The position numbers were made by a program, and so were the translations under genes. Shown here piece by piece: positions 2,566-17,329 of a stretch of DNA of 64,000 bases. Under the pieces are notes generated by a model. It ran no database searches. It worked only from the letters and a program-made list of their open reading frames with translations, and had not been told where the DNA came from. The stretch's first letter is position 1. Each line of letters opens with the position of its first letter. The DNA comes from an uncultured Candidatus Saccharibacteria bacterium (lineage in GTDB: Bacteria; Patescibacteriota; Saccharimonadia; Saccharimonadales; JAGQNJ01), in assembly GCA_965231045.1 (NCBI GenBank), contig OZ246406.1, forward strand, positions 322,208 to 386,207. The letters are read 5' to 3'.

Positions 2566-4530
2566 CTATTTTATCTTGTTTTTGACCTCGTCTATTAAGT
2601 CGCGTAGTTCAGCAGCTTTTTCAAACTCCAGGTTGGCTGCCGCTAGTTCCATTTGTGACGTAAGATCTCGAATAAGTGGTGCGTATTCCTCGGCCGGGAT
2701 CTTCTTAAGATCAAGCTTTGGCTTGTCTTCTTTTGGTGAGCGAGGCAAGGTATTTTCTTCAATAGCTTTGGCTATGCCTTTAGGCGTTATTCCGTGTTGT
2801 TTGTTGTAGTCCTCTTGGATTTTACGGCGTCGATTCGTTTCATCGATAGCGCGTTTCATGCTCCCCGTTATGTGATCGGCGTACATAATAACGTGTCCTT
2901 CAACGTGGCGAGCAGCACGGCCGATAGTCTGAATTAAAGCCTGCTCGGATCGAAGGAAGCCTTCTTTATCGGCATCAATTATTGCTACCAAACTTACCTC
3001 GGGCAAATCAAGACCTTCCCTAAGCAAGTTAATTCCAACCACAACGTCGTACGTACCAAGCCGTAGATCGCGCAAAATGTCCGTTCGCTCCAGAGTATCA
3101 ATATCACTATGCAGATAAGTAACCTTAATATTTATCTCTTTTAGGTACTCACTCAGATCTTCGGCCATGCGTTTTGTTAGAGTAGTAACAAGCACGCGCT
3201 GACGCTTTTCAACCGTAGCTTTAATTTCGTTCACCAGGTCATCAATCTGATTATTAACTGGCCTGATCTCAATCGGTGGGTCAATCAGCCCCGTCGGACG
3301 AATTACTTGCTCAACAGGCTTAGGGCTACGAGACAACTCATAATCGGCTGGTGTCGCCGAAACATAAACTACTTTGTTAATATGCTGTTCGAACTCGGGG
3401 AAAGTTAGTGGGCGGTTGTCCAATGCGCTCGGCAGCCTAAAACCATGCTCAACTAACACTTCCTTGCGGGCTCGATCGCCGTTATACATGCCCCGCACTT
3501 GTGGCAGTGTCATGTGCGATTCATCAATAAACATCAAGTAGTCATCTGGGAAGTAATCCAATAAGGTGGCTGGTTGTTCACCGGGTTCACGATTGGTTAG
3601 ATATCGGCTATAGTTCTCGATACCTTTTACAAAACCCGTTTCCTCAAGCATTTCCAGATCAAAATTAGTTCGTTGCTCTAGTCGCTGGGCTTCTAGTAAC
3701 TGCCCATTCTTTTTGAAGGTTCTTAGCTGCTCATCAAGTTCGTTTCTAATTTTGCCTAAAGCAAGCTTGAGTTTGTCTTGAGGCGTAACATAGTGACTTC
3801 CCGGGAATATATCAACTTCCTTTGGTGTACTTAGAATTTCGCCGGTTAGTGGATCGATTTTTACAATACGGTCAATTTCATCACCAAAAAATTCAATTCT
3901 ATAGGCCAACTCTTCCCCGGCGGGGAATACATCAACTACATCGCCACGAACTCTAAATGTCGAACGATGAAAGTCGATGTCATTACGTTGGTATTGAATA
4001 TCAGTAAGTTGGCGCAAAAACTTATCACGTACCCGTCGCTCGCCTGTTTTAAGCCGAATCGCGAGCCCATCATAATCTTCAACCGAACCTATACCATAAA
4101 TACAGCTCACGCTCGCTACAATAATCACATCGCGTCGTGACAACAATGAAGCCGTAGCTGCGTGACGCAATCGATCAATTTCTTCGTTAATCTGACTATC
4201 TTTCTCAATATATGTATCTGAGCGCGGAATGTACGCCTCTGGTTGATAGTAATCAAAGTAGCTTACAAAGTAATGCACTGCATTTTCGGGGAAGTATTGT
4301 CGAAACTCATTGTAGAGCTGCGCGGCCAGAGTTTTGTTATGGCTCAAGATCAAGGTTGGCTTTTGTTGATTGGCAATCACATTGGCCATAGTAAACGTCT
4401 TGCCTGACCCTGTTACTCCTAAGAGAGTTTGTTCTCTTGTCCCCTGCTCTAAATTCTTAACCAAAGCCACAATAGCCTTCGGCTGGTCGCCGGTTGGCTT
4501 ATATTTTGAGGATAACTTGAACGAGCTCAT
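2566..4530 (-). CDS. uvrB: excinuclease ABC subunit B
   Basis: Walker [31 protein letters not shown] box, and C-terminal UVR motif [13 protein letters not shown]. 654 aa. Confidence 0.97.
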
Positions 4531-4594
4531 GTTGTTGTCTCCGCTAGAATTTGAGAAGTAGATTTACTAGTAAGATAGCAACTTTCTTGCGCCA

Positions 4595-4610
4595 AGGCAT
4601 AGCTATGCCT
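4595..4610. repeat. 16-bp perfect palindrome AGGCATAGCTATGCCT in the 182-bp spacer upstream of uvrB
   Basis: Read directly. The sequence equals its own reverse complement. It is flanked by GTAGATTT (4558-4565) / AAATCTAC (4644-4651) and two ACTAGT copies. Confidence 0.8.
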
Positions 4611-4712
4611 ATGTTGCGAAGCAAAAAGTTGATAGATTGCAGCAAATCTACTCCGTAGACTAGTGAAGATGACAATATGAGCTCGAGTCATCCTTATATT
4701 GTATCAAGAATA

Positions 4713-5279
4713 CTAGAGTGCTTGTATAGTCTTTGCTTCGGCTTTAAAACCGTCCCAAGCAGCCTGTTGCTTAGCTTGAATGCCGGCATCCTGCGAGCAA
4801 TAAGCCTGTGAGCGGCTCATATAGTAAGCATCGTTGCCGATAACAGCACCTGAGGCAGTGGCAAGATCCCCATATGTTTTACCAGATTGTTCGTCAACAT
4901 CAGTCTTTGCGTACTTACCAATAGCCACGACACCCGTTTTGTCAGCGCCACACTCGGCATCTGCTGTCTTGAGTGATGTCGTTGATATATAGGCGTAACC
5001 ATTCTTCATTATGTAGTAGGCGTCTGTAGTACTGTCACCTAGCTCCATCTTTATGCCTAACTCTTTAATCTCCAGGTATTTTTTGGTTACTTCTTTTGGC
5101 TTCTCGGCAGCAGGTTTTTGTTCTTGCTTCGGCTGGCTCTGCTGCTGGCCAGAATCGGTAGGTTTGTTATTGCCTTTTTGCTTCCATACCCACCAACCAA
5201 GTGCAATGAGTATTAGTATTAGAAGTAGTAGGAGTAAAAGCTCCCAAAATCCAAATCCTTTTTCGTTGAGTTTTTCCAT
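4713..5279 (-). CDS. membrane-anchored protein with prepilin-like N-terminus
   Basis: N-terminus MEKLNEKG/FGFWE-LLLLLLLILILIALG has G then E at +5, like type IV prepilin signals. It is followed by a Q/K/P-rich linker and a 110-aa C-terminal domain with two Cys. Confidence 0.55.
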   Translation of the reverse strand: MEKLNEKGFGFWELLLLLLLILILIALGWWVWKQKGNNKPTDSGQQQSQPKQEQKPAAEKPKEVTKKYLEIKELGIKMELGDSTTDAYYIMKNGYAYISTTSLKTADAECGADKTGVVAIGKYAKTDVDEQSGKTYGDLATASGAVIGNDAYYMSRSQAYCSQDAGIQAKQQAAWDGFKAEAKTIQAL

Positions 5280-5281
5280 GT

Positions 5282-5938
5282 TTAATTTACCTTTATCGTC
5301 TTAATTGCTCGCTCAACTTCAATGCTTCGATCAGTTTTACCATTTGTAATAACATTTGTTATTACGTAGGTTACTTGTATATATTTTCCATCCTGCTCAA
5401 AGTAGTAGTTGTATATTTTATCTCCCACATCTAAGCCAGGACCATCGGCCTCCGTAGCAACTTTATAATACTTATGTACATTTAAACCACTGTCTGTTTT
5501 AAAGCTTGATTGTTCGGCACCTTGCTTACTAGGTGCCGAGGCAGGGACATCAAGTGCAAAGAGCATATATCCGCTAATCGGACTATTTGATTGCTCGACT
5601 TTCGCTAGCGTTCCTTTTTTATAATCAATGTTGTTTGAATGTAAGTTATCCCCAGCACTTGTTACCAACCAACCATCTGGTATTCTTATTGAATATTTTT
5701 GGCTTGGTGCCGAATAAAGAAGCCATCCATCTTCTTCCTTGGTAGCTGGCTTTTCAGCAGTCTTTTTCTTTTCGCTCTTTTGGGCATCACCAGCACCTTG
5801 GGATGTATCGTTTAGGGTTTTGTTGGTTTTGCTCTTGGCGTTCCATACATAGTAGCCTACGCCACCAATAGCTAGAACTAGTACTATTATCAGCGCCACC
5901 ATTGTGCCGGCTATACCTTGTTGATTGAGTTTTTTCAT
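5282..5938 (-). CDS. membrane-anchored protein, paralogue of 5948-6631 (degenerate prepilin-like N-terminus)
   Basis: MKKLNQQG/IAGTM... has Met at +5 instead of Glu. It shares GVGYYVWNAKSKTNKTLNDTSQGAGDAQKSEKKKT and a YSIRIPDGW beta-rich domain with the upstream gene. Confidence 0.6.
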   Translation of the reverse strand: MKKLNQQGIAGTMVALIIVLVLAIGGVGYYVWNAKSKTNKTLNDTSQGAGDAQKSEKKKTAEKPATKEEDGWLLYSAPSQKYSIRIPDGWLVTSAGDNLHSNNIDYKKGTLAKVEQSNSPISGYMLFALDVPASAPSKQGAEQSSFKTDSGLNVHKYYKVATEADGPGLDVGDKIYNYYFEQDGKYIQVTYVITNVITNGKTDRSIEVERAIKTIKVN

Positions 5939-5947
5939 GGCTTCTCC

Positions 5948-6631
5948 TTATAGAAATTCAAATGTTGCAATTGCCTTTTCGACATACTGTGTCTGGTCTG
6001 TTTCGCCTGGAGCGATATCATGCACAACGCTAACAGTATAGCTGCCCTTGGAAAATCGGTAATCGTATTCTACGGTGCCCTTTGGTGGACCAATTGCCTC
6101 TGGATCCTTGGGTACTACGTATTTATATTTATCTACGGTAAGTCCGTCTTTTGTCTTAAGTGATAAAGCTTGTTTGTCACCACTTGGGGCGCTGATTTCA
6201 CTCGTTTTCATATAGTTAACAGCAAATGGTACTGAAGAAAAATCACGACCACCCTCAACCTGGGTTACTGTTGCTAAGGTGCCTTTTGCATAAACAATGT
6301 CTTTTGCTGCATTTGCGTATATGCCAGAACTGGCCTGATATCGCTGTAATTTCCAACCATCTGGCATACGTAACTGATATTCCTTACCAGGTGTGGTATA
6401 CAAGTACCAGCTAGCGGTTTCATCAGCTGTAGTAGATTTAGTTGTGGTTTTCTTTTTTTCGCTTTTTTGGGCTTCGCCGGCGCCTTGGGCAGTATCACTT
6501 AGGGTTTTAGTAGTCTTATTCTTAGCTTGCCAGACATAATAGCCTACGCCAGCGACAGCTAAGATCACAAACACAATTAAAACAATCTCAAGCGCAGCGA
6601 CACCGGCCTGATTTAGTTTTTTCATATTCAT
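5948..6631 (-). CDS. membrane-anchored protein with prepilin-like N-terminus, paralogue of 5282-5938
   Basis: MNMKKLNQAG/VAALE-IVLIVFVILAVAG has G then E at +5. This is followed by GVGYYVWQAKNKTTKTLSDTAQGAGEAQKSEKKKT and then a YQLRMPDGW domain. Confidence 0.6.
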   Translation of the reverse strand: MNMKKLNQAGVAALEIVLIVFVILAVAGVGYYVWQAKNKTTKTLSDTAQGAGEAQKSEKKKTTTKSTTADETASWYLYTTPGKEYQLRMPDGWKLQRYQASSGIYANAAKDIVYAKGTLATVTQVEGGRDFSSVPFAVNYMKTSEISAPSGDKQALSLKTKDGLTVDKYKYVVPKDPEAIGPPKGTVEYDYRFSKGSYTVSVVHDIAPGETDQTQYVEKAIATFEFL

Positions 6632-6671
6632 GTACGAGATCCTTTTGTATTAAATTAAACTAATGATACTG

Positions 6672-7286
6672 CTAATGCTTATCTTTATCAAGAAACCAGC
6701 TAGCACGATTGTGCAGATCGATATCACCCAATTGTTGTTTCATAAGATCAATAACCTTAGTGACAAGAACTTTTGGGTCTGAATCAATAATGATCAGGTT
6801 ACGGTGAGGTGGCTCAAGAGCATCTAATAGGCCTGGTATGGCATCAGCCGTGCCTCCACTGCCCAGTAAGATACCGCAAGGCATTCCTGCCTCAACCGCC
6901 GTAGTAAACTCATGAAGGCTCCCAAAACGCCCACCAACGGTAATAATGGCATCGCTGGACTGCACTAGATGAATGTCGCGGCCAACATAATGCATACCCG
7001 TGAAATTAATAAAATCATACACCCCAACTGGTAGCCGATACTTATTTAGATGTTCTCTAAGGCTAGCGGCCGGTGAAAAACCAATACTCATACCACCAGC
7101 CTTATAAGCTGACCTTGCGGCATAATAAGGTAGCCCGATGGTTGCACCGGTCGTGATGATATTACCTGATTTGGCAATTTCTCGGCCAACTTCTTCGGCA
7201 TATTTACGGGCTGTTTCAACCGTCTTACCACCAGCCGCCCCAGAAAAACAGATAGAATACTTCACGTTAGATATCCTCTGGTGCAA
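6672..7286 (-). CDS. LOG / TIGR00725-like Rossmann-fold protein (SLOG superfamily)
   Basis: ICFSGAAGG, GNIITTGATIGLPYYAA, GGMSIGFSP and VGGRFGSLHEF resemble the LOG pattern (GGxGTxxE with one extra residue). It overlaps the upstream gene by 20 nt. Confidence 0.6.
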   Translation of the reverse strand: MHQRISNVKYSICFSGAAGGKTVETARKYAEEVGREIAKSGNIITTGATIGLPYYAARSAYKAGGMSIGFSPAASLREHLNKYRLPVGVYDFINFTGMHYVGRDIHLVQSSDAIITVGGRFGSLHEFTTAVEAGMPCGILLGSGGTADAIPGLLDALEPPHRNLIIIDSDPKVLVTKVIDLMKQQLGDIDLHNRASWFLDKDKH

Positions 7287-8511
7287 TCATATTGTTATTG
7301 AGTTGCTTTAATACCTGTTGTTCCAGCGTCTTTTGACCCATATAACGCTCGAAAATCTCAGTCCATAAACTTTCACGAAAATGATAGATTGCTCTGTCTT
7401 TATAAGGCAACTTATTAACATAGCTGGCAGCCACATCAAGCACATTAAAGGTTATTGGCCGGCCGGCGTGCATTGTTGCCACGTAATCCAGATCTTGCCA
7501 GAATGACAATTCAGGATCGAGCTCATAGAGCATAGTCTCTGCTCGACGCCAGTGTAAATCCTCAGGCTGAACATGTGGTTCGAAAATTTCTGGATGATAT
7601 TCATTATCGAGTTTGCCGAAATAACGTTGGATAACACGCCAGTGAATGTTCTGGCCAGCCATAACTGCGCCTTGTGGTGGATCGGCAATGAGAGTTGTTA
7701 CTAGGATTTCACCAAAGTTAGGCTTTACTTGCTGTAGCTTGAAAAACGCTGAGTACAGTCTAATTTCATTTAGATAATGAAACAATAACGGCAAAGCAAA
7801 AATAGTAATTCCTCTTAAGGATCCGGTGATTGGGAGCATTAAAATAACGCCTAGCTCTTTAAGGTGAGTTATATTGTGTTTTTTCTTATGAATGAACGGC
7901 GCCGCAATATCACCCCAGCGATCGGCCGGCATCATAACAATTTCAATCTGACGAGTTTCAAAATCACTAGGTTTAAGCTTCTTGTAAGTTTCGTCAAAAG
8001 CATTCAGCCACTTGGGATCTTCAGCGAACCTTAACGCACCGTATATCTCAGCTAGGTTCTCATTCTTGAGCATGGAATCGATCGATCGATAATGCAGATG
8101 CTTCATGATGTTTTTGGGCGGCATGTTCTTAAGTATCTTTTTGGCCACACTCTTTTTGAGTACCCATGCAGATTTCGGCGTCTTAAAATCATCCCAAGCC
8201 TTTTTCATGAGTGGCATCAGACTTGCAGCATCATTAGGATCAGTGCCGCCAATCTGTTTTACTAAATGCTCGTCATTTTGCTCGATCTTGTTTAGAAGAG
8301 CAAAGTAAAGCTCTTTGCCAGTTGTATCATCTGGGTCTAAGCCGAGTTCTTGGGTTTTAAGTCGTACTTTTCCGATAATTTCAGAGGTCAATCGAACGTC
8401 AACACTAGGATTGCCACTGGCCTTTTCTAGCTGTTTTAAAGCTAACGAAAACATAGGTTCAGTAGCGCCCAAAAGTTCTGAAAGCATTTTGCTCATAGTT
8501 AACATAAGCAT
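7267..8511 (-). CDS. hypothetical protein (414 aa)
   Basis: Long ORF in operon context with no recognisable motif. The start is ambiguous (Met codons at 8511, 8505, 8496, 8487; no clear SD). Confidence 0.6.
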   Translation of the reverse strand: MLMLTMSKMLSELLGATEPMFSLALKQLEKASGNPSVDVRLTSEIIGKVRLKTQELGLDPDDTTGKELYFALLNKIEQNDEHLVKQIGGTDPNDAASLMPLMKKAWDDFKTPKSAWVLKKSVAKKILKNMPPKNIMKHLHYRSIDSMLKNENLAEIYGALRFAEDPKWLNAFDETYKKLKPSDFETRQIEIVMMPADRWGDIAAPFIHKKKHNITHLKELGVILMLPITGSLRGITIFALPLLFHYLNEIRLYSAFFKLQQVKPNFGEILVTTLIADPPQGAVMAGQNIHWRVIQRYFGKLDNEYHPEIFEPHVQPEDLHWRRAETMLYELDPELSFWQDLDYVATMHAGRPITFNVLDVAASYVNKLPYKDRAIYHFRESLWTEIFERYMGQKTLEQQVLKQLNNNMIAPEDI

Positions 8512-8540
8512 AACACTTCGAGAACTGTTCAGTAAAGAAT

Positions 8541-10028
8541 CTAGGACACCATTTCGTCAATAAAAGATACTTGAGCTAAATTTCGTGCATTATGTAGCTT
8601 AAGCTCATGCTGCTCAATCCAGACAAATGGCGCATGGGCTGCTGTAGCAATCTTAAGTCCAGTCGCGACGTGACGTAAGCGGCTATTTACAACAGGGTAT
8701 CTTTCACCCAAAAACATACTAAATAGTTGTGATGCTGCCATAACATTTGTTGATATCTTGCCTGATTTAACTGATTTTGTATCAATACCACGAGCTTTAA
8801 ATGGGCCTCTAAGAAGTGTTACACCAATATCCCGGCCAATCGTGGCATAGGCATCAAGTCGGTTAATTGTACCTGAAGGCAAAAGTACCCACAGATCAGT
8901 TGCAGCCGATAACAATTTGTCATAGTTTTGGTCTTTGGCACCACCTTTTTTGGTTACACCATCTTTATGGTTTTTTGCCGCAAAGCCATCGACTGCATCG
9001 CTGGCATATCCAACGGCCACGAGCGCTTTAGCAAGTTTTTGTTTGGTTTCAGGATCTATATCCATATGGTGGATTGCAAATAAGCCTGCGGCAATTAACA
9101 CTCTACTGTTTGTTAAAGCATCGGCTGTTGTTCGACCGTGTTCATAAAGAAACTCCTTTATAGCTTGTTCTGGTGTTTCACCATACTTGGCTGCTGTTTC
9201 TTGGATTTTTTCTAACGCCACCCAAAAAGCTGGTCGCTTAATAGAATCAAGTACCTCTGGACTAAGTTCGATATCTGGCAAACCGTAACCAACAATCTTA
9301 TCTTTACCATCAGCCATATCTGGTCTTAGCTCGATTACATCTGCAAGCTTAACTGGCTCACCGCCAATCGTAATAGAATCTTGCCGAACAATTGGGTTAA
9401 GCAAAAGGTGCGCATAAATTCGTAAATTTGCTTCTAAAGGATCTCTAATAAGTTTATCGCCAATGTGGCGATTCTCACCAAACGGTCGAGTCCAAGCTCG
9501 ATGTTCTAGTCCTACGAAGTTTGCCGCCCGAATGCCTGCCGAAGCTTTATCGTCAACCATCGAAGCCTCACGTCGAATAACAGCCCTTGCTTCTTGGTTA
9601 TTCGGGTTAACGTCGTAGCCAAAATACTGAAGTCCTTTGTACAGCATAACCGGACTTGGTTTACGCTCCCTTGGATGTAATGGTGTTAGTACTATATCCG
9701 CATCTGTTTGTTCTTGCCAAGCACTCAAGAGACCACGATCCTTTTTAGTTGTAATATCAAGATTTGTGACCAATGCTAGCCGGTCAATCCCGAACTCTCG
9801 CGCCCCCTTAAGATGGTCTACATACTCCTGTACTAGTTCTTCGTTGCCGGTCTCGCCAAGACAAGCTTCGACATCGCTAAAATGCGTACGGACACCTTCT
9901 TCGGCCCATTTCTGAAAATTAATATCAGTATAGTCGTAAACGGGAGGTTCCGACGGCATAAACTCTCCGATACGATCAGTAACCCGACCCATTAATAGTG
10001 GCTTGTTCACATCGCTCATTGATAACAT
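8541..10028 (-). CDS. fusion protein: HAD-like phosphatase domain + CDP-alcohol phosphatidyltransferase-like domain
   Basis: N-terminal half has HAD motifs in order: SDVEAC, LALVTNLD, ERKPSP, MVDDKASAGIRAANFVG. C-terminal half has DAVDGFAAKNHKDGVTKKGGAKDQNYDKL (DG-x2-AK-x9-G-x3-D-x3-D) and the PgsA-like IGRDIGVTLLRG...SGKISTN. Confidence 0.55.
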   Translation of the reverse strand: MLSMSDVNKPLLMGRVTDRIGEFMPSEPPVYDYTDINFQKWAEEGVRTHFSDVEACLGETGNEELVQEYVDHLKGAREFGIDRLALVTNLDITTKKDRGLLSAWQEQTDADIVLTPLHPRERKPSPVMLYKGLQYFGYDVNPNNQEARAVIRREASMVDDKASAGIRAANFVGLEHRAWTRPFGENRHIGDKLIRDPLEANLRIYAHLLLNPIVRQDSITIGGEPVKLADVIELRPDMADGKDKIVGYGLPDIELSPEVLDSIKRPAFWVALEKIQETAAKYGETPEQAIKEFLYEHGRTTADALTNSRVLIAAGLFAIHHMDIDPETKQKLAKALVAVGYASDAVDGFAAKNHKDGVTKKGGAKDQNYDKLLSAATDLWVLLPSGTINRLDAYATIGRDIGVTLLRGPFKARGIDTKSVKSGKISTNVMAASQLFSMFLGERYPVVNSRLRHVATGLKIATAAHAPFVWIEQHELKLHNARNLAQVSFIDEMVS

Positions 10029-10057
10029 CTTACACTATGTATTGGAAGAAATGCCAA

Positions 10058-11026
10058 TTAAAGGTTTTTAGAATGGATTGTCAAAGGATGCAATCGAGCA
10101 TTTTGCTGTAGGATACCGGCTTTGGCGCCGATCTTGCCAACCACACCTGTTGAATTAGCGCTTCCAAAAGTAATAGCTTTTTCAATCGATTCACCCTTAG
10201 CGGCCATGGCTACAAAACCACTATTAAAAGCATCGCCAGCGCCCGTTCTATCAATTACTGGGACATCTTCGTACATACCAGCTTTATATAGTTTTTGATC
10301 GTAGGCGGCGATAACGCCATGTGGGCCATCGGTGCCAACAACGCAAGGTACGTGCTCGCTGGCTTTTATAACTACTTCCTCCAACGTACCATTTCCAAAG
10401 AGCATTTGAAGTTCATCTTTGTTGAGGCACAGAATATTAAAACTCGGCAGCAATTTCTTAAGCTCACTAGCCTGCTTGAGCTCACCTTTGCCAGGGTTAA
10501 TTGCCACCTCAATCTTGTGAGCTTTAGCATACTCAACAATAACTTTTAGGGCATCAAGATTTCCCCCTAAAGATGAAATATAGAACCAATCAGCTTTCAT
10601 GCCGTGAAAATCAGACTCGTGAAGTGTAAATTTTGTAGATGCGCCCCTATAGGTTAAGATTGTCCGCTCGCCACTGGGGGCTAATAGTAGGACTGAATAT
10701 CCGGTGCCGGTATCTTTCTGAGTCTTAACTAATGAAGTATCGACTCCTTCTTTGTGCAAGTCATCTAGTACGGCTTGGCCGGCAACATCGTTGCCAATAT
10801 GGCCCATGTAAAGACTATGCAAGCCTTGGCGGGCAAAAGTTACAGCGGCGTTTGTTCCACCCCCACCGGTACTAAAGACTACATTTTCAACATCGTTTTT
10901 ACTGCCCAACTCGAACTCTTCGACAAGTTCGCCGTCATCCTCTCGGTGTGGTCTGAAAATATTACTTTGCAAAAACACATCTTGCACACCAGCACCAATT
11001 GCAATTACTTTTGGGGTATTACTCAT
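10058..11026 (-). CDS. PfkB-family carbohydrate kinase
   Basis: GGGGTNAA di-Gly motif and DRTGAGDAFNSGF (DxxGAGD) ATP/anion-hole motif. 322 aa. Substrate not deducible. Confidence 0.85.
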   Translation of the reverse strand: MSNTPKVIAIGAGVQDVFLQSNIFRPHREDDGELVEEFELGSKNDVENVVFSTGGGGTNAAVTFARQGLHSLYMGHIGNDVAGQAVLDDLHKEGVDTSLVKTQKDTGTGYSVLLLAPSGERTILTYRGASTKFTLHESDFHGMKADWFYISSLGGNLDALKVIVEYAKAHKIEVAINPGKGELKQASELKKLLPSFNILCLNKDELQMLFGNGTLEEVVIKASEHVPCVVGTDGPHGVIAAYDQKLYKAGMYEDVPVIDRTGAGDAFNSGFVAMAAKGESIEKAITFGSANSTGVVGKIGAKAGILQQNARLHPLTIHSKNL

Positions 11027-11032
11027 TGACTG

Positions 11033-11944
11033 TTACGGCCTTGCTTTGCCCTCGGCATTAAACATATCAATTTTGCTTTCGACAACTTTTTGAACCTCTG
11101 TAATAACCGTGCCCATAAGTTTGACCACCGCAAATTCGGTTTTGTTCTCTGCCAATACCTTCTCAAGCGTATGCCGGTAGGCATAGCGCATGTCAGAGTT
11201 TATGTTTATCTTGCTGACACCAATTTTGACGGCTTCTTCAAAATAATGCCCGGGCGTATCCGATCCACCGTGCAGACTTATATTACAGTCAATGGCTTCT
11301 CGAATTTCTTTTAGGAGTTTTAGGTCCAGATGTTTTGGCACTGGATACTTGCCATGAAGATTGCCAATGGCCGCTGCAAAGGTATCAATTCCAGTTGCTT
11401 GTACAAAATGTCGTGCTCCTTCTGGTGTGCTGAAGGTTTTCTTAATTTCTTCGTAATCAATCTTTTTTGTGAAGACATTTGATCCACCACCAAAGTAATG
11501 TGGCTCGCTCTCAACTAAGGCACCAGTCAATTTAGCATAATCAACAACTTCGTGGGTGGCTTTTATGATCTGTTCATCTGTTGCATCATGGTTGGCCTGG
11601 CTAATATCAATATGAATAAACTCAAAACCGGCCTCAATACCATCACACGCATCTTCGACACTTGGACTGTGATCCAAATTGATATACATCTCAATGCCAT
11701 ACTGTGCTTTGTAGTTATCAACCATGTCTCGGACGTTATCAAGACCCATAGCATCAACTTCACCCTTACTGACCTCTACAAGTACAGGTGCGTTTTTGGC
11801 CTTTGCTGCCCGACAAACTGCAACTAAGGTTTCTTGGTTATCGAGATTAAAAGCACCTACTGCAAAGTGTTCAGCTCGTGATCTTGCCATGAGCTCGCGA
11901 GCTTTTTGGCAATTATCCCTCATTTGTCTAAGCGTTAGCGGCAT
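11033..11944 (-). CDS. fba: class II fructose-bisphosphate aldolase
   Basis: Zn-ligand blocks NLDHS, IHIDIS, GNLHGKY, SLHGGSD. Confidence 0.9.
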   Translation of the reverse strand: MPLTLRQMRDNCQKARELMARSRAEHFAVGAFNLDNQETLVAVCRAAKAKNAPVLVEVSKGEVDAMGLDNVRDMVDNYKAQYGIEMYINLDHSPSVEDACDGIEAGFEFIHIDISQANHDATDEQIIKATHEVVDYAKLTGALVESEPHYFGGGSNVFTKKIDYEEIKKTFSTPEGARHFVQATGIDTFAAAIGNLHGKYPVPKHLDLKLLKEIREAIDCNISLHGGSDTPGHYFEEAVKIGVSKININSDMRYAYRHTLEKVLAENKTEFAVVKLMGTVITEVQKVVESKIDMFNAEGKARP

Positions 11945-11949
11945 GAGTT

Positions 11950-12921
11950 TTATTTTACCTCAAATACATCATGAGCGGCAGCCATAATATGTTTATAGGT
12001 TAAACCAAAGTGTTCGAGTAACTGTTCCGGATCACCAGATTCACCAAAATGATCTTTAACACCAACTCGTCTCATAGGCACCGGATGATTTTCACTCAAA
12101 AGTTCAGCCACGGCGCTACCGAGCCCCCCATTTATCTGATGTTCTTCAACCGTGACTACTGCGCCAGTCTTTTTAGCACTCTGTAAAATTGTCACGCCAT
12201 CAAGCGGTTTGATTGTTGGGCAATTAATAACTTCTGCATCAATTCCAGACTTATACAAATGTTCAGCCGCCTGTAGTGCCGGATAAACCATTGTGCCTGT
12301 GGCGATTATAGTAACGTCCGTTCCCTTATCGAAAACTTGGGCTTTACCAATCTCAAAAGGCGTATCAGGAGTTGTAAAAACTGGTGTAGCTTCACGTGTT
12401 AAACGAATATAGTTTGGCCGCTTGTCTTTGGCCATGGCCAGAGTTGCCTTTTCAGCCTCAAGAGCATCACACGGAACAATGACAACCATATTTGGCAGAG
12501 CTCTCATAAGTGCTAAATCCTCTAGCATTTGATGGGTTGCACCATCTTTTCCGGTGTACAAGCCGGCGTGGGAACCAACAATTTTTACTGGTCGATCATT
12601 CAAACACACTGTTGTGCGAATCTGCTCCCAGTTTCGCCCCGGACTAAAGGCGGCATAACTACTTACAAAAGGTATTTTATCCATAGCTGCCAGACCAGCA
12701 CCCACAGTAACCAAGTTTTGTTCAGCAACGCCAATCTCAACAAATCGCTCGGGAAAAACTTTGGCAAAATCGCCCATTTTTGTAGAATCTGTTAGATCAG
12801 CACAAGCAGCTACTACACGCTCATCAATTTGACCAGCTTTAAGTAAGCCTCGACCAAACCCGGCTCTAATTGGGTCTGTAGCAATATCTTTGGCAAAGAG
12901 GTCATCAATAACTAAATTCAT
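11950..12921 (-). CDS. tkt: transketolase, C-terminal (pyrimidine-binding) subunit
   Basis: GVAEQNLV and GATHQMLEDLALMRALPN. Overlaps the N-terminal subunit gene by 4 nt. Confidence 0.92.
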   Translation of the reverse strand: MNLVIDDLFAKDIATDPIRAGFGRGLLKAGQIDERVVAACADLTDSTKMGDFAKVFPERFVEIGVAEQNLVTVGAGLAAMDKIPFVSSYAAFSPGRNWEQIRTTVCLNDRPVKIVGSHAGLYTGKDGATHQMLEDLALMRALPNMVVIVPCDALEAEKATLAMAKDKRPNYIRLTREATPVFTTPDTPFEIGKAQVFDKGTDVTIIATGTMVYPALQAAEHLYKSGIDAEVINCPTIKPLDGVTILQSAKKTGAVVTVEEHQINGGLGSAVAELLSENHPVPMRRVGVKDHFGESGDPEQLLEHFGLTYKHIMAAAHDVFEVK

Positions 12922-13778
12922 TCATGCTCTCCTTTGATTTTGCCTCTCAGGGTTCGAAGTTCGTGAAGAGCTTGTTTGGCCTGCTCCTTATTTGGGGGAG
13001 CACCGTGCCAATGAAAATCATATTCCATAAAATCAACACCCATGCCTGGTATGGTATGAGCAATAATCATGACAGGCTTCTCAACAACCGCTCTGGCCAT
13101 GGCGCAGGCGTCAATTATAGCCTCCATATTATTGCCATCAATTTCAATAACGTGCCAGCCAAAGGCCGTCCATTTATTCTTAAGGTCTTCGAGCGGCATT
13201 ACTGATTCGGTTGGGCCATCTATCTGGATGTTATTGCGGTCAATTATGCCGATAACATTGTTTAGCCTGTACTTGCTCGCCAGCATAGCAGCTTCCCATA
13301 TATTGCCTTCATCTAGCTCGCCATCACCCATAACAACGTAAACCCAACGATGCAATTCTTTATCCATACGCATAGCAAGAGCCATGCCACAAGCCTGACT
13401 AAGGCCACAGCCCAAAGGCCCACTGGTAGTTTCCAAACCAGGTAGCTTAAGGCGTTCCGGGTGTCCTTGGAGACGAGACCCAAACTCACGAAGTGTAAGT
13501 AGCTCTTTTTTATCAAAGTACCCAGCATGAGCCATAGTTGCATAGCGAACCGGGGCGCAGTGACCGTTACTAAGCAGAAGGATGTCCCTTTGGTTCCAAT
13601 CAGGCTTCATAGGATCGTGTTTCAAGATATCAAAGTATAAAGCCGTAAAGATATCTGCCAAACCAAGAGGTCCAGCACTATGGCCGCTACCAGCATGTAC
13701 CAGCATTTTTATGATGTCTTGCCGTATTTCATTGCTCTTCAGCTCGAGCTCTTCGATCGTGTATGTTTTTTTACCCAT
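12918..13778 (-). CDS. tkt: transketolase, N-terminal (TPP-binding) subunit
   Basis: GSGHSAGPLG and GDGELDEGNIWEA TPP motif. Confidence 0.92.
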   Translation of the reverse strand: MGKKTYTIEELELKSNEIRQDIIKMLVHAGSGHSAGPLGLADIFTALYFDILKHDPMKPDWNQRDILLLSNGHCAPVRYATMAHAGYFDKKELLTLREFGSRLQGHPERLKLPGLETTSGPLGCGLSQACGMALAMRMDKELHRWVYVVMGDGELDEGNIWEAAMLASKYRLNNVIGIIDRNNIQIDGPTESVMPLEDLKNKWTAFGWHVIEIDGNNMEAIIDACAMARAVVEKPVMIIAHTIPGMGVDFMEYDFHWHGAPPNKEQAKQALHELRTLRGKIKGEHE

Positions 13779-13801
13779 AAAATAAGCTTCCCGCTTTTGC
13801 T

Positions 13802-14431
13802 TTAGTTTAGCAGATTCTCGAGAATCTCGTAACGTTCCTTTGGATTTTCAGCACGTTGAATGTAGCCCCCTACATTGAGCACATCAACACCGGCATCAAT
13901 TAACTGTTTTACATTTGAGTCATTAATGCCGCCGTCCCATCCTACTTCAATACCTGGCTTAAGCTCTTTAGCCCGGCGAACTTTTTCGAGTAGAGCAACG
14001 TCTAGACTACCTCCAAAGTGCCCCAAGTCACCACTAAAAACAAGTAAGTGATCGGCGTGCTCAAGAGCTGGCTTTATTACATCAACTGGTGTTTTGGCGA
14101 GCAGTGCAACCCCAGCTTTTATTCCAGCTTCGTGAAGTTTCTGGGCAATAACCACAAAGTTTCCTTTGGCCTCGGCGTGCACAATTACCAAACTAGGTTT
14201 TATACGAATAATGGCATCCAACTCGTGTTCAGGGTTTTCGTGCATAACATGAAGGTCGGCCTGTAACTTTTCGGGCCACCATGCGTGAGCAATACTTGGT
14301 GACTTGGTTGGGGCAAATTTACCATCCATAAAATCAAGATGAACTCGTTTTATAAAAGGGGCCACCCGCTCCATTTGTTCTCTATATTGATGAGTATTCA
14401 ATGCCGTTACAGTTGGGCAAATAGTAGCCAT
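13802..14431 (-). CDS. rpe: ribulose-phosphate 3-epimerase-like barrel
   Basis: HLDFMDGKFAP, HVMHE, VHAEA and WDGGIN fit the Rpe metal/phosphate motifs. Operon context with rpiB/tkt. Confidence 0.72.
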   Translation of the reverse strand: MATICPTVTALNTHQYREQMERVAPFIKRVHLDFMDGKFAPTKSPSIAHAWWPEKLQADLHVMHENPEHELDAIIRIKPSLVIVHAEAKGNFVVIAQKLHEAGIKAGVALLAKTPVDVIKPALEHADHLLVFSGDLGHFGGSLDVALLEKVRRAKELKPGIEVGWDGGINDSNVKQLIDAGVDVLNVGGYIQRAENPKERYEILENLLN

Positions 14432-14441
14432 ATGCTTATTC

Positions 14442-14882
14442 CTAACTCAGTTCGTCGAGTTGTTTTATGCGTCTTAAGAATCTGGATGCACCAGCAAAGG
14501 GAGTTTCTAGCCAGGTGTCAACCAATTGTTTAGCTGTTTCAAAGTCTAGTTTTCGGGCTGGTAAGCAAATTATATTTGAATCGTCATCGTTACGAGACGA
14601 ATGGGCTTCATCTTGATCCCAGACCAAACTAGCGCGGACGCCTTTATATCTATTTGCCGCCATACAAACGCCTTGGCCACTTCCGCAAAGCAATATGCCC
14701 TTGCTAGTATCATCAGCTACTATTTCGCTAGCAACCTTGGCAGCATATACTGGAAAATCATCATCTGATTTAAGCTCATCATCGCCTTTATCAATAACTT
14801 CACGTCCTTTTGACTTTAAGTATTCCTCAAGCTTTTCCTTGAGTTCAAAGCCATTATGATCAGCGCCAATAAAAATTTTCAT
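14442..14882 (-). CDS. rpiB: ribose-5-phosphate isomerase B
   Basis: MKIFIGADHNGFELKEKL and LLCGSGQGVCMAANR (catalytic Cys loop). Confidence 0.92.
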   Translation of the reverse strand: MKIFIGADHNGFELKEKLEEYLKSKGREVIDKGDDELKSDDDFPVYAAKVASEIVADDTSKGILLCGSGQGVCMAANRYKGVRASLVWDQDEAHSSRNDDDSNIICLPARKLDFETAKQLVDTWLETPFAGASRFLRRIKQLDELS

Positions 14883-14885
14883 ACT

Positions 14886-15926
14886 TTATTCGTGATGACC
14901 GGTGTGGTCTTCTTTTTCGTGCAGAATTTTGCCCATGTCGGCAACCATTTCAACAAGTCGATTGCTATAGCCCCATTCATTGTCATACCATACGACAACT
15001 TTGGCCATGTTGCCTCCGACAACATTTGTTAGCAACAAATCAACAATTCCCGAGTGACTATTCCCAATGTAATCACTACTTACTAGGGGTTCGTCACTGA
15101 CATCAATAACACCTTGGAAATATGGTTCTTTGACGGCCTTTTTAAACACATCATTAATCTCATCAACTGTTACATCTTTTTTGAGCAGTAGTGTTATGTC
15201 GCTGAGTGAAACAACTGGAGTTGGTACCCGAACGCTCATGCCATCAAACTTATCTTTTAGCTGCGGCAGTGTTAATGTAACCGCAATGGCTGCGCCAGTA
15301 GTAGTCGGGACGATGTTCTCAGCCGCTGCTCGTGATTCTCGCATATCCTTAGCTGGCCCATCCTGTAACGCTTGACTAGCAGTATAGCTGTGAACAGTGG
15401 TAAGCATGGCTTTCTCCACGCCAAAGGTGCTATCCATAATGGCCATGACCGCTGATAACGAATTCGTTGTACATGAAGCATTACTAACAATATCACCGGC
15501 TCCCTCAAGCTTGTCGTCGTTCGCTCCGATTACAATAGTTTCGACACCTTCACTCTTAGTAGGAGCCGATATAACTACCTTTTTAGCACCTGCGGTAAGA
15601 TGCATACTGGCATCTTCTTTTTTCGTGAATCGTCCCGTTGACTCAATTACAACATCAACTTTGAGTTCCTTCCAAGGTAGCTGTGTAGGGTCTTTTTCGG
15701 CCGTAACTTGGATTTTTTCACCATCAACAATCAAATGCGTATCATCAAAATCAACTTTTTTGTCGTAATTACCGTAGTTGCTGTCGTGCTTCAGTAAATA
15801 TGCAAGCGTCTTAGTATCTGTTAAGTCATTAATTGCAACCACATCAATATCTTTCCGATCAATTGCAATCTTAAAGGCATTTCGGCCGATTCTACCAAAA
15901 CCGTTAATTGCCACCCGAGTTTTCAT
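14886..15926 (-). CDS. gap: type I glyceraldehyde-3-phosphate dehydrogenase
   Basis: INGFGRIGRN NAD fold and SNASCTTNS active site. Confidence 0.96.
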   Translation of the reverse strand: MKTRVAINGFGRIGRNAFKIAIDRKDIDVVAINDLTDTKTLAYLLKHDSNYGNYDKKVDFDDTHLIVDGEKIQVTAEKDPTQLPWKELKVDVVIESTGRFTKKEDASMHLTAGAKKVVISAPTKSEGVETIVIGANDDKLEGAGDIVSNASCTTNSLSAVMAIMDSTFGVEKAMLTTVHSYTASQALQDGPAKDMRESRAAAENIVPTTTGAAIAVTLTLPQLKDKFDGMSVRVPTPVVSLSDITLLLKKDVTVDEINDVFKKAVKEPYFQGVIDVSDEPLVSSDYIGNSHSGIVDLLLTNVVGGNMAKVVVWYDNEWGYSNRLVEMVADMGKILHEKEDHTGHHE

Positions 15927-15954
15927 TTTAAAAATACCCCCTTATTCAGGAGGT

Positions 15955-15963
15955 ATTGTACCA
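15955..15963 (-). promoter_or_regulatory. extended -10 element TGGTACAAT for the gap operon
   Basis: The reverse complement of attgtacca lies in the 52-bp gap. AAGGGG SD at 15937-15942, 10 nt before the ATG at 15926. Confidence 0.5.
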
Positions 15964-15978
15964 TAATCGCTTATGTTT

Positions 15979-16320
15979 TTAAGAAATATTGCCAGATTCT
16001 TCAACGACAACACGGGCAGTAGCAGCACCATCAACTTTTGAAAACAAATCGTCAAATTCTTCAGAGGTAAGTCCATATGCTGCAACTACATCGAAATTAG
16101 CTTCACTAAGCAAGCCCATTGCACCGACTAATTTATACAAATCTTCATCAGAAGTTGCCTGGATTACGTTTTCAGCAGAATCTGCGGCACGTACGTCTAA
16201 AACCAAGCCTGCAACACGAGTTGCGGCCGATAAACGAGCCCTAACCTCACGCTGATGTTCCTTAGCTTCTTCTATCGTAGGTTGCACAGGATCTAGATCA
16301 AACATACATATATTATACAA
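15979..16320 (-). CDS. hypothetical acidic protein (113 aa)
   Basis: ORF only. The alternative start MFDLD at 16305 is possible. No motif. Confidence 0.45.
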   Translation of the reverse strand: MYNICMFDLDPVQPTIEEAKEHQREVRARLSAATRVAGLVLDVRAADSAENVIQATSDEDLYKLVGAMGLLSEANFDVVAAYGLTSEEFDDLFSKVDGAATARVVVEESGNIS

Positions 16321-16332
16321 CCACTGTGGAGT

Positions 16333-16758
16333 TTACGCAAGTAGGTGATTCGCTTCTAGGTGTTCAAATAACTCTTTGTGCAAAGGATATTCAAACTCTT
16401 TTAGAGCCTCATCAAGTGTCATCCACTTGTATTCATTATGCTCGTCACTTATCTTTACATCGTTTGATTCTGTATGGCCAACAAAAAATAGCCATAAGAC
16501 ATTTAATTTTTCGTCTTTGGGCTGCTTGATTGCGTGACTAGTATATATGAGGTCAAGTTCTTTTGGATCGATAGTTACACCGGCCTCTTCTTCAGTCTCA
16601 CGTGTTGTGGCCTCAGCAAAGTTCTCGCCTTCCTCAGCCCAGCCACCGGGGATGTCCCACTGCAGCGGACGACGGTCATCTGTTTCACTACGGCGAAGAG
16701 CTAATAGCTTACCTTCTCCGTTCAAGATAACAGCTTTGCAAACAACTACAGTTCTCAT
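16333..16758 (-). CDS. NUDIX hydrolase
   Basis: Nudix box GGWAEEGENFAEATTRETEEEAGV. Confidence 0.88.
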   Translation of the reverse strand: MRTVVVCKAVILNGEGKLLALRRSETDDRRPLQWDIPGGWAEEGENFAEATTRETEEEAGVTIDPKELDLIYTSHAIKQPKDEKLNVLWLFFVGHTESNDVKISDEHNEYKWMTLDEALKEFEYPLHKELFEHLEANHLLA

Positions 16759-16761
16759 TGC

Positions 16762-17286
16762 TTACTTCTTTGCACGCGCAATTGAATCTTCAATAACCTT
16801 GTGTGCATCTTCAGCGCTTCCCCATCCCTTTAGTTTAGCGCTAACACCCTGCCAGTTTTTCTTCCAGTCTTTGTAGTGTGAATAGAAGTGCTCGATATTC
16901 TTTTTGAATGCTTCGCCTAGATCATCAAGTGACTCTATGTGATCTTTGCTAATGTCATCAGCTGGCACACAAATGAGTTTTTCATCCATTTCACCATCGT
17001 CTTCAAAGTAAAGAACACCAACGGGTCGGGCTGAGACTACAACACCATGCGGCAATGACTCGTCAATAATAACTAGTGCATCAAGTGGGTCCCCATCTTC
17101 ACAAAGCGTGTCTGGCACATAGCCATAATCTGTTGGGTAGCCAAGTAATGTACCGTTAACACGATCCAAAAATAGGCGCCCAGTGTCTTTATCCATTTCA
17201 ATTTTATTTCGAGATCCTTTTTGAATCTCAATAATAACGTTTACAACCTTTGGTGCATCATCACCATAACTCACATATTGTGCCAT
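16762..17286 (-). CDS. ppa: family I inorganic pyrophosphatase
   Basis: DYGYVPDT and DGDPLDALV motifs. 174 aa. Confidence 0.93.
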   Translation of the reverse strand: MAQYVSYGDDAPKVVNVIIEIQKGSRNKIEMDKDTGRLFLDRVNGTLLGYPTDYGYVPDTLCEDGDPLDALVIIDESLPHGVVVSARPVGVLYFEDDGEMDEKLICVPADDISKDHIESLDDLGEAFKKNIEHFYSHYKDWKKNWQGVSAKLKGWGSAEDAHKVIEDSIARAKK

Positions 17287-17316
17287 TTTTTACTCCTAGT
17301 TACTTCAATCATATTG

Positions 17317-17322
17317 TACACT
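17317..17322 (+). promoter_or_regulatory. -10-like TACACT 7 nt before the ATG (leaderless-type promoter)
   Basis: TACACT-acctctt-ATG(17330). No SD in between. Confidence 0.45.
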
Positions 17323-17329
17323 ACCTCTT

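Follow-up and report, generated by a model that had tools for sequence, protein, structure and literature searches.

Saccharibacteria are tiny parasitic bacteria. In an uncultured Candidatus Saccharibacteria bacterium, a stretch of 64,000 nucleotides of contig OZ246406.1 (assembly GCA_965231045.1), referred to here as the window, carries three co-directional minus-strand open reading frames downstream of a pfkB kinase gene, and an earlier note on this DNA had described them as the three-gene tail of a sugar-phosphate operon. Do these three genes form one unit, and what would such a unit contribute to the operon? Here, we describe the gene organisation, conservation, fusions and fold assignments observed at this locus. 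The region comprises two different things: a conserved pair, consisting of the gene for a 414-residue protein (orf414) and a gene for a SLOG/LOG-family protein, and an accessory gene encoding a HAD::PgsA-like fusion.

Table 1. Features of the locus, with positions counted from the first letter of the window.
Feature	Position	Strand	Basis
Class II fructose-bisphosphate aldolase (fba), context	11033..11944	-	ORF, operon order
pfkB-family sugar kinase, context	10058..11026	-	PF00294 E 9e-45; best PDB sequence match E. coli YdjH
495-aa HAD::PgsA-like fusion gene, accessory, variable slot	8541..10028	-	PF01066; fold match
HAD-fold domain, about aa 30-185	9474..9941	-	Alignment of 13 homologues; Foldseek
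PgsA-like six-helix CDP-alcohol phosphotransferase domain, aa 286-494	8547..9173	-	Foldseek 7DRK/7DRJ
Catalytic signature D344xxD347G348xxA-K352-x9-G362xxxD366xxxD370	8919..8999	-	Regex match
orf414, 414 aa	7267..8511	-	ORF; large uncharacterised Saccharibacteria family
orf414/SLOG junction	7263..7282	-	GAGGA 7278-7274, TAA 7269-7267, GTG 7265-7263
SLOG cluster-4 protein (TIGR00725-like, LOG-superfamily), 197 aa from GTG	6672..7265	-	PF18306 E 2.7e-26
SLOG gene in longer form, 204 aa from first TTG	6672..7286	-	ORF

The three reading frames lie where the earlier note had placed them (Table 1), and the two gaps of 29 nt that it reported, between pfkB and the fusion gene (10029-10057) and between the fusion gene and orf414 (8512-8540), are real. 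Neither gap contains a promoter-like or terminator-like site, in agreement with its claim that no promoter or hairpin separates the genes, and across positions 4400-17400 such sites occur at chance frequency (promoter-like, 31 vs 27.2+/-5.1 expected; terminator-like, 12 vs 13.0+/-3.9 expected). The proposed 20-nt overlap of orf414 and the SLOG gene, on the other hand, is rejected as a product of starting the SLOG frame at its first TTG. A GTG lies 1 nt after the orf414 stop (TAA-C-GTG), with GAGGA positioned 8 nt upstream as a Shine-Dalgarno sequence, and gene callers begin the SLOG protein at this GTG, both of which favour the 197-residue form. In most related loci that have both genes, the SLOG match begins between -22 and +56 nt from the orf414 stop, and the layout of the junction suggests that the two genes may be translationally coupled.

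The order gap-rpiB-rpe-tktN-tktC-fba-pfkB-orf414-SLOG-uvrB is kept in 28 of 29 related genome loci, and the operon with orf414-SLOG is still present in a locus (L034) where orf414 identity is 31%. In a census of 121 related Saccharibacteria loci (about 110 informative for the upstream gene and about 109 for flanking genes), the upstream neighbour that accompanies orf414 most constantly is pfkB (98/~110), and a SLOG-cluster-4 or true LOG gene flanks orf414 in ~100 of ~109. Downstream of orf414, the census holds a SLOG cluster 4 gene in 91 loci and a LOG-type gene in 9; in two further loci a LOG gene lies upstream on the opposite strand. The linkage of a LOG-type protein to the gap-rpiB-rpe-tkt-fba-pfkB operon is genuine and extends far beyond the window. 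The trio that the earlier note proposed as a unit does not hold: its synteny and adjacency extend to the orf414-SLOG pair but not to the fusion gene, which does not occupy the slot between pfkB and orf414 in any of the 29 genome loci and is present in only 3/121 census loci, two of which duplicate the window.

The nature of the SLOG partner varies among relatives. At the same site, the SLOG gene can be replaced by TIGR00730 LOG proteins that score 123-138 bits against a cut-off of 96.35 and ~100 bits with PF03641, and that keep an intact PGGFGTLDE motif. Additionally, three divergent genomes (L033, L104, L110) encode orf414 and a TIGR00730 LOG domain as one in-frame fusion; because these fusions are 64-74% identical to each other, the arrangement is inherited rather than an assembly error. 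The conserved unit is the pair of orf414 and a SLOG/LOG-family protein, and the fusion gene is an optional add-on. The two genes are not strictly obligate neighbours, however, because in one branch of the orf414 family (subfamily 3; L035, L036, L038) the order is pfkB-orf414-fba, with fba directly after orf414 and no SLOG/LOG gene nearby in the sequence available, and because in Southlakia epibionticum fba-kinase-SLOG is present and orf414 is absent from the site. In L035, orf414 overlaps the start of fba by 16 nt. A mirror-tree test did not single out the orf414-SLOG pair.

This pattern of inheritance bears on whether the pair could serve in SLOG-based conflict or defence and adjoin the operon by chance. 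Defence systems centred on nucleotides often contain SLOG domains, and the SLOG protein has one weak PADLOC match, to PsyrA (E 0.003, 14.8 bits). In more than 100 loci, nevertheless, the pair keeps one fixed place in the chromosome, is transmitted vertically and changes at the rate of core enzymes; neither orf414 nor the fusion matches a PADLOC model, and the region lacks mobile-element features and has normal GC content. We therefore consider a defence role very improbable.

The SLOG protein of the window was compared with family profiles and solved structures. It passes PF18306 (SLOG cluster 4) at 92.4 bits (cut-off 26.3) but falls below the cut-offs of PF03641 (LOG; 21.3 vs 27 bits), TIGR00730 (37.7 vs 96.35), TIGR00725 (59.6 vs 106.9) and CtkRMPhLog (19.9 vs 300), and the NF038390 profile of PpnN-type nucleosidases gives no match to it. 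The LOG/TIGR00725 pattern seen in the earlier note is thus right as to the superfamily, through SLOG cluster 4, and wrong as to LOG, TIGR00730 or TIGR00725 membership. The nearest solved structures are TM1055 (1RCU, E 8.8e-11) and the Moco carrier proteins 2IZ5 and 6Y01 (E 9e-11 to 7e-6 overall), and the S. epibionticum orthologue has a MCP/YpsA-related ECOD assignment. By profile and sequence match, the protein belongs to the TM1055/Moco-carrier branch of SLOG cluster 4 and is closer to it than to LOG enzymes. R103 and E126 (204-residue numbering) align with the GRK Arg and the PGGFGTLDE Glu of the TIGR00730 partners, and this Arg and Glu are invariant across SLOG orthologues and LOG partners (GRD vs GRK; GGRFGSLHE vs PGGFGTLDE); following established LOG enzymology, we take them to be catalytic. 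The LOG loop GGGxxGxMG reads TGATIGLP, and PGGxGTxxE reads GGRFGSLHE.

These features admit a reading in which the pair is a small-molecule sensing or regulatory unit, with the SLOG protein binding, but not cleaving, a nucleotide or phosphosugar and orf414 relaying the signal to the kinase, the aldolase or flux through the operon. SLOG domains have been proposed as nucleotide sensors, and among LOG-type enzymes E. coli PpnN is under allosteric control. The failure to reach LOG cut-offs and the nearest solved relatives, which either carry ligands or have unknown functions, fit such a role, as does transposon sequencing in S. epibionticum, where the SLOG orthologue is non-essential while rpe, rpiB and fba show growth defects (PMC10633639 Table S1). 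On the other side, threshold-passing TIGR00730 LOG proteins with PGGFGTLDE take the place of the SLOG protein or are fused to orf414, which argues for catalysis; the SLOG orthologues keep the LOG Arg and Glu without exception, and no DNA-binding or signalling domain can be recognised in orf414. A sensing unit is, on balance, unlikely.

What, then, is orf414? The earlier note had called it an orphan, and it is far from that: the family counts 3,162 homologues, which fall into 807 clusters at 50% identity. No Pfam domain was found among these homologues, and orf414 itself has no match in the Pfam, NCBIfam or PADLOC profiles. Alignments of most homologues begin at query residue 6, and the start is therefore probably M6 (ATG 8496). 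A very confident AlphaFold (AF2) model has a pLDDT of 95.9 and a pTM of 0.93, and Foldseek searches of this model against PDB and BFVD gave no match at E<=1e-3. The model predicts a new fold, unlike any solved structure. The hydrophobic stretch that had been noticed, GVILMLPITGSLRGITIFALPLLFHYL, is indeed present (residues 221-247); a membrane span was rejected for it, given that the model, with its pLDDT of 96, places it in a buried strand plus helix. Of the supposed His/Trp-rich C-terminal half only the His part stands, with 10 of 13 His in that half and Trp split 4/4. W291, D359 and Y390 are invariant in the homologue alignment, and the near-invariant residues (E29, D38, D59, D62, E67, K119, E151, E164, D183, E185, R187, D359, Y390) are mostly Asp, Glu, Lys, Arg, Tyr and Trp. 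With a median identity of 66.7% (pfkB, 57.5; SLOG, 62.4; gap, 67.3), orf414 is conserved at the level of the operon's enzymes. No catalytic motif was recognised in it, and nothing indicates any particular reaction.

A serious rival explanation, possible if doubtful, places orf414 in central carbon metabolism, as an enzyme of new fold that acts with the pfkB kinase and the aldolase and fills an unannotated step, such as a sedoheptulose-1,7- or fructose-1,6-bisphosphatase, a phosphofructokinase (PFK) or an activity that bypasses transaldolase. On this view the SLOG/LOG protein would be an adjoining gene product whose role is separate or regulatory. The constancy of pfkB as its neighbour, its place between pfkB and fba without a nearby SLOG gene in subfamily 3, its core-enzyme conservation and a near-invariant residue mix typical of metal- and phosphate- or sugar-binding sites all point this way. 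Saccharibacteria are reported to lack PFK and transaldolase, with fructose-1,6-bisphosphatase (FBPase) patchy or missing (PMC6031116; PMC9166423), and these enzymes are unannotated in S. epibionticum even with structure-based annotation. S. epibionticum, however, shares the operon and the gaps yet has no orf414 at the site, and orf414 therefore cannot be a universal solution. Moreover, pfkB and Fba alone could in principle bypass PFK and transaldolase, like the sedoheptulose-bisphosphate route of cellulolytic clostridia (PMC7029132), no catalytic motif was recognised in orf414, and the three inherited orf414::LOG fusions are left unexplained.

It is from the replacement by TIGR00730 LOG proteins at the site and from the orf414::LOG fusions that delivery of ribose-5-phosphate remains our leading hypothesis. 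We infer, tentatively, that the SLOG/LOG protein supplies nucleotide-derived ribose-5-phosphate to the operon and that the new-fold orf414 is its partner; every biochemical activity named here, and contact between the two proteins, is conjectural. The SLOG/LOG protein would bind nucleoside 5'-monophosphates (NMPs) and cleave the N-glycosidic bond to yield ribose-5-phosphate, which RpiB, Rpe and transketolase, encoded just upstream, would pass into glycolysis. orf414 would be made together with the SLOG protein through the coupled stop and start, and may act as a physical partner that either gates NMP cleavage or performs a linked step. Saccharibacteria have no synthesis of PRPP or nucleotides and depend on imported nucleotides (PMC6031116); gating would matter because NMP cleavage is potentially dangerous to an organism that cannot make nucleotides.

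Several observations run against ribose-5-phosphate delivery. The SLOG protein lies below the LOG cut-offs and carries the TGATIGLP loop, and its nearest solved relatives (TM1055, Moco carrier) bind ligands or have unknown functions. Subfamily 3 shows no SLOG/LOG gene in the sequence available, S. epibionticum lacks orf414 at the site and can dispense with its SLOG orthologue, and the mirror-tree result belongs on the same side.

The remaining gene encodes a real HAD::PgsA-like fusion of 495 residues without membrane-like hydrophobicity. The HAD/CDP-alcohol-transferase assignment of the earlier note is confirmed by PF01066 (34.6 bits vs a cut-off of 22) and by fold. In the N-terminal domain, an alignment of 13 homologues defines HAD motifs I (D52-V-E54), II (T88-N89), III (K123-P124) and IV (D160-K161), of which T88/N89, K123-P124 and D160 are conserved and the Glu54 of the DxE motif I is invariant; Foldseek matches this domain to HDHD4/NANP, GmhB and the phosphatase domain of T4 PNKP, and the YqeG family TIGR01668 matches it weakly (E 0.078, 12.5 bits vs a cut-off of 89.1). 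The C-terminal domain matches S. aureus PgsA (7DRK/7DRJ; Foldseek E 5e-5, TM(target) 0.76-0.79, rmsd 2.4-2.7 over 182-184 columns). The four signature Asp and the two Gly do not vary among the 13 homologues, the spacer is x9 where D(x)2DG(x)2AR(x)8G(x)3D(x)3D has x8, and K352 is Arg in most other homologues. No membrane span is predicted in this domain (KD19 maximum 1.17, family 1.17-1.82; GRAVY -0.10), and its helices are polar, with 2-9 charged residues per predicted helix. Only 14 fusion homologues were found among 5.8 billion proteins, and a literature search found no report of a HAD phosphatase fused to a PgsA-like transferase. Most likely the fusion would make and then dephosphorylate a phosphodiester product, the same chemistry as PgsA followed by PgpP.

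CDP-alcohol phosphotransferases release CMP, and from this established enzymology a single pathway can be drawn for all three genes in the lineage of the window: the transferase builds a phosphodiester and frees CMP, the HAD domain removes the terminal phosphate, and SLOG with orf414 hydrolyses CMP to cytosine and ribose-5-phosphate. The fusion gene occupies the same slot in L030 and in the distant L032, where it shares 47% identity with that of the window and orf414 shares 42%; contigs of 35931, 15260, 50179 and 22618 bp common to the match lists suggest at least four more assemblies with all three genes; and divergent CDP-OH-like ORFs sit in the slot in L028, L097, L002 and L027. These occupants are, however, heterogeneous, stand alone on either strand, often the opposite one, and several have a degenerate catalytic motif, and the fusion is missing from the great majority of loci in which orf414-SLOG persists. 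We judge a common pathway improbable. The best explanation is that the fusion, whose GC and GC3 are not anomalous, is an accessory, lineage-restricted gene in a variable slot, outside the sugar-phosphate pathway.

Known systems resemble parts of this locus. In cellulolytic clostridia, a route of PFK and aldolase via sedoheptulose-1,7-bisphosphate bypasses transaldolase (PMC7029132); there as here a kinase adjoins a class II aldolase in an organism without transaldolase, and by analogy such a bypass is a plausible role for the pfkB-fba pair beside orf414. The clostridial route needs no third protein, however, and gene adjacency is all that ties orf414 to it. The fusion domains would perform two consecutive steps, as do PgsA and then PgpP/YqeG (PMC11804483), and its C-terminal domain superposes on S. 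aureus PgsA with all four signature Asp kept, while its N-terminal domain has the HAD fold and a weak YqeG-family signal. It differs in being a single chain, in its polar transferase helices, in the x9 spacer and in its DxE motif I: PgpP needs DxD, since its D34N and D36N variants are inactive (PMC11804483). TM1055 and the Moco carriers provide the best sequence matches among solved structures, and PF18306 is passed, but these proteins have no known sugar-phosphate role and no orf414-like partner, and the TIGR00725 cut-off is missed. The type-II LOG/TIGR00730 family of cytokinin riboside 5'-monophosphate phosphoribohydrolases shares the Rossmann-like fold, the Arg and the PGGxGTxxE-type Glu, and true members occupy the same genomic position in some relatives, whereas the SLOG protein of the window falls short of its profiles and has TGATIGLP and GGRFGSLHE in place of its motifs. 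Unlike the case of E. coli PpnN (YgdH), a nucleotide 5'-monophosphate nucleosidase, the partner here is usually separate and larger (414 residues), the genes lie inside a pentose-phosphate operon, and NF038390 covers only the LOG part of the LOG-type partners (23-30 bits vs 450). orf414 also lacks sequence or fold similarity to any PDB entry, although any flanking domain of such a type with a solved structure should have come up in a fold search of all PDB chains. What the two systems have in common is a LOG-fold core joined to extra non-LOG mass, and in PpnN this architecture converts NMPs to base and ribose-5-phosphate under metabolic control.

The object of genuine interest at the end of this operon is a pair of genes, orf414 (encoding a 414-aa protein) and a partner of the SLOG/LOG type, and not the trio that the earlier note had proposed by including the preceding gene, which encodes a 495-aa HAD::PgsA-like CDP-alcohol phosphotransferase (the fusion gene). 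The order gap-rpiB-rpe-tkt-fba-pfkB-orf414-SLOG-uvrB is kept in 28 of 29 related genomes, and the fusion gene is missing from the site in all 29. Synteny thus bears out the placing of the pair in a pentose operon but not the three genes as a module, and a true three-gene pathway with CMP recycling is very unlikely. Metagenome contigs and assembly look-ups widened the set to 121 loci, the profile scan of the contigs using a narrower alignment because the wide one held no sufficiently conserved stretch. In this census pfkB adjoins orf414 on the upstream side in 79 loci and lies at least 250 nt away in 19; the downstream gene is of SLOG cluster 4 in 91 loci and of LOG type in 9, and in two other loci a gene of LOG type lies on the upstream side of orf414, on the opposite strand. 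The LOG-type neighbours exceed the TIGR00730 cut-off and take the place of the SLOG gene at the site rather than being added to it. A LOG domain is joined in frame to orf414 in three loci (L033, L104 at positions 5001-6983, and L110); the mutual identity of these fusions is only 64-74%, and the fusion is therefore inherited. There are two important exceptions: in one subfamily the gene order is pfkB-orf414-fba, and the available sequence contains no SLOG gene; in the cultured Southlakia epibionticum the run fba-kinase-SLOG is not accompanied by orf414. In mirror-tree comparisons an apparent orf414-pfkB signal (r 0.53 versus 0.15) vanished on removal of divergent pfkB paralogues, after which all pairs gave Pearson values of 0.44-0.61 and Spearman values of 0.34-0.46.

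In the window, where GC is about 42-44% and the named relatives of the proteins are Saccharibacteria, the minus-strand ORFs run ppa, Nudix, a 113-aa ORF, gap, rpiB, rpe, split tkt, fba, pfkB, fusion gene, orf414 and SLOG. An ORF listing returned the last three exactly where the earlier note had placed them, and the 29-nt gaps it described between pfkB and the fusion gene and between the fusion gene and orf414 are real and free of promoter-like or terminator-like sites, which occur at chance frequency in the region. The 20-nt overlap of orf414 with the SLOG gene disappears if the latter starts at the GTG at 7265, which lies 1 nt past the orf414 TAA and 8 nt past a GAGGA and is chosen by gene callers, giving a 197-aa protein. 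The true start of orf414 is probably M6, since the majority of homologues align from query residue 6. Rfam found only two tRNAs in the window and no RNA element near the locus.

Several neighbouring genes have features of their own. Transketolase is encoded as separate N- and C-terminal genes with a 4-nt overlap, a split kept in all relatives examined. Inorganic pyrophosphatase and a Nudix hydrolase lie a short way upstream of gap; a Nudix enzyme with ADP-ribose or NDP-X as its substrate would give NMP, and from ADP-ribose it would give ribose-5-P as well, a reaction that would suit a route from nucleotides to pentoses in which the SLOG/LOG protein also takes part. The thioredoxin-reductase-like ORF, as called, starts at a GTG and has a leader of 40 residues rich in Cys, Arg and Phe; this leader is likely an ORF-calling artefact, the real start probably being the internal MSEEKNK. 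Three tandem genes (188, 218 and 227 aa) between the SLOG gene and uvrB each encode a hydrophobic anchor at the N-terminus and, after it, a linker rich in Lys, Glu and Thr; two of them, with 38-42% identity, are clearly paralogous, the N-termini are loosely pilin-like (in two genes, G with E at +5), none reaches a Pfam threshold, and presence and copy number differ among relatives (L027, L028).

Features of the window and CDP-OH-like ORFs found between pfkB and orf414 in related Saccharibacteria loci (L numbers)
Feature	Sequence	Positions	Strand
Three tandem genes	window	4713-6631	
SLOG gene (GTG start)	window	6672-7265	-
orf414	window	7267-8511	-
Fusion gene	window	8541-10028	-
pfkB and fba	window	10058-11944	-
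Transketolase, C-terminal gene	window	11950-12921	-
Transketolase, N-terminal gene	window	12918-13778	-
Pyrophosphatase and Nudix hydrolase	window	16333-17286	-
Thioredoxin-reductase-like ORF	window	18456-19508	
CDP-OH-like slot ORF	L028	5068-5958	-
CDP-OH-like slot ORF	L097	404-1030	-
CDP-OH-like slot ORF	L002	5135-5953	+
CDP-OH-like slot ORF	L027	5310-5927	-
CDP-OH-like slot ORF	L010	4054-4863	-

The protein encoded by orf414, previously called an orphan, has 3,162 homologues in 807 clusters at 50% identity. It matches no Pfam, NCBIfam or PADLOC family, a scan of all 111 aligned members yielded no consistent weak family, and a profile search of PDB sequences returned chance matches only. An AlphaFold model built from the alignment of 111 sequences is very confident (pLDDT 95.9, pTM 0.93), and Foldseek found nothing for it at E<=1e-3 in PDB or BFVD (TM about 0.1). 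The hydrophobic stretch is predicted in this model to form a buried strand and helix, and a membrane-protein reading was rejected. The C-terminal half, described before as rich in His and Trp, is enriched in His but not in Trp. A 582-aa relative, P0122, carries an extra copy of the N-terminal helical region of about 165 aa (motif LGLDPxDTTxxELYxAL) ahead of a complete orf414, which suggests that this region is an independent module. We found no paper describing the family, nor one tying Saccharibacteria to LOG, PpnN or SLOG. A role in defence is extremely improbable, and was rejected on the PADLOC search and the 121-locus census.

The partner in the window, earlier read as LOG/TIGR00725-like, falls under the LOG, TIGR00730 and TIGR00725 cut-offs and is assigned to SLOG cluster 4 (PF18306). 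An Arg and a Glu that are catalytic in LOG enzymes are common to the SLOG4 and LOG partners in alignment. We tentatively propose that the SLOG/LOG protein would free ribose-5-P from nucleoside monophosphates, with orf414 as a partner that gates or extends the reaction. This proposal is made because orf414 stays with a LOG-superfamily protein, SLOG4 and LOG versions being interchangeable at the site and gene fusion having taken place; because both sit in an operon whose first chemical steps use ribose-5-P; because the partners share these two residues; because orf414, by identity comparison, evolves as slowly as the operon's enzymes; and because PRPP and nucleotide synthesis are absent in these bacteria.

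It is unlikely that the pair is instead a non-catalytic sensor, a reading consistent with the nearest solved relatives of the SLOG protein, TM1055 and Moco carrier proteins, and with published Tn-seq of S. epibionticum, in which the SLOG gene is non-essential while growth is impaired for rpe, rpiB and fba (PMC10633639 Tables S1/S2). The main rival, itself rather improbable, holds that orf414 is a missing central-carbon enzyme working with pfkB and Fba; the pfkB-orf414-fba arrangement, the acid-rich conserved residues of orf414 and the documented absence of phosphofructokinase, transaldolase and often fructose-bisphosphatase argue for it.

The kinase deserves separate mention, as a pfkB-family gene adjoining fba in a phylum reported to be without phosphofructokinase and transaldolase. 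This enzyme, for which E. coli YdjH is the best relative with a solved structure, is without the ribokinase Lys of the GGKG motif, and together with fba it could constitute a sedoheptulose- or fructose-bisphosphate bypass; in the S. epibionticum Tn-seq both genes show growth defects.

The fusion gene encodes a genuine two-domain protein by Pfam and by fold, as the earlier note had it. Residues 300-439 match CDP-OH_P_transf above the Pfam threshold, and the model has a pLDDT of 74.5 overall and of 75-93 inside the two domains. Superposition of the C-terminal bundle of six helices on S. aureus PgsA gives E 5e-5 and TM(target) 0.76-0.79, and the N-terminal domain matches HAD phosphatases. In 13 homologues the four signature Asp are all invariant, with a spacer of x9, not x8, and HAD motif I is an invariant D-V-E instead of DxD; the PGP phosphatase PgpP/YqeG requires both motif I Asp (PMC11804483). 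The transferase helices are polar (domain GRAVY -0.10, KD19 maximum 1.17, 2-9 charged residues per helix).

The slot that this gene occupies between pfkB and orf414 is variable, being elsewhere empty or filled by heterogeneous ORFs. Only 14 homologues of the fusion gene were found among 5.8 billion proteins; it stands in the same slot in the distant relative L032, and contigs of matching length in the separate lists of homologues suggest the same for a few other assemblies. The ORFs that recur most encode CDP-OH-like proteins, stand-alone and divergent, on one strand or the other, and some have degenerate motifs; those tabulated are short (205-296 aa), polar and highly divergent, in some the G(x)3D(x)3D part of the motif has been lost, and they may be a soluble branch of the CDP-alcohol-transferase family that is decaying or evolving fast. 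S. epibionticum has a non-essential 195-aa member of that family at another place in the genome (SEML1_0297). A recent horizontal origin of the fusion gene at this site is unsupported, GC and GC3 being ordinary and the slot being shared with L032; we read it as an old, dispensable accessory gene outside any three-gene module.

In repeated reports Saccharibacteria and other CPR bacteria have neither phosphofructokinase nor transaldolase, often no fructose-bisphosphatase, and no nucleotide synthesis at all. The locus offers a testable handle on how they run central carbon metabolism and divide the nucleotides they scavenge between growth and energy: a family of thousands whose confident predicted structure is unrelated to any solved one, a place that stays fixed, with the operon's kinase or aldolase on one side and a LOG-type protein on the other, and an inherited orf414::LOG fusion in one lineage. 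The function of the pair, once shown, would either disclose where nucleotide ribose enters fermentation or account for an enzyme step that is missing. For the enzymology of lipids and head groups, the polar PgsA-like fusion is a further curiosity of lesser weight. It is doubtful, as a joint claim, that orf414 founds an undescribed Saccharibacteria-specific fold and enzyme family, doing or gating a 'missing' nucleotide-ribose or sugar-bisphosphate step as a subunit of a LOG/SLOG complex, and that the 495-aa protein is the first soluble CDP-alcohol phosphotransferase fused to its own phosphatase. The fusion protein resembles the successive steps of PgsA and PgpP but differs in being a single polar chain with DxE. 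The orf414-SLOG/LOG pair belongs to neither PpnN nor the type-II LOG enzymes, since it fails on cut-offs and on motifs and nothing known is related to orf414, but it is these that it would work most like, as a LOG core with an extra protein.
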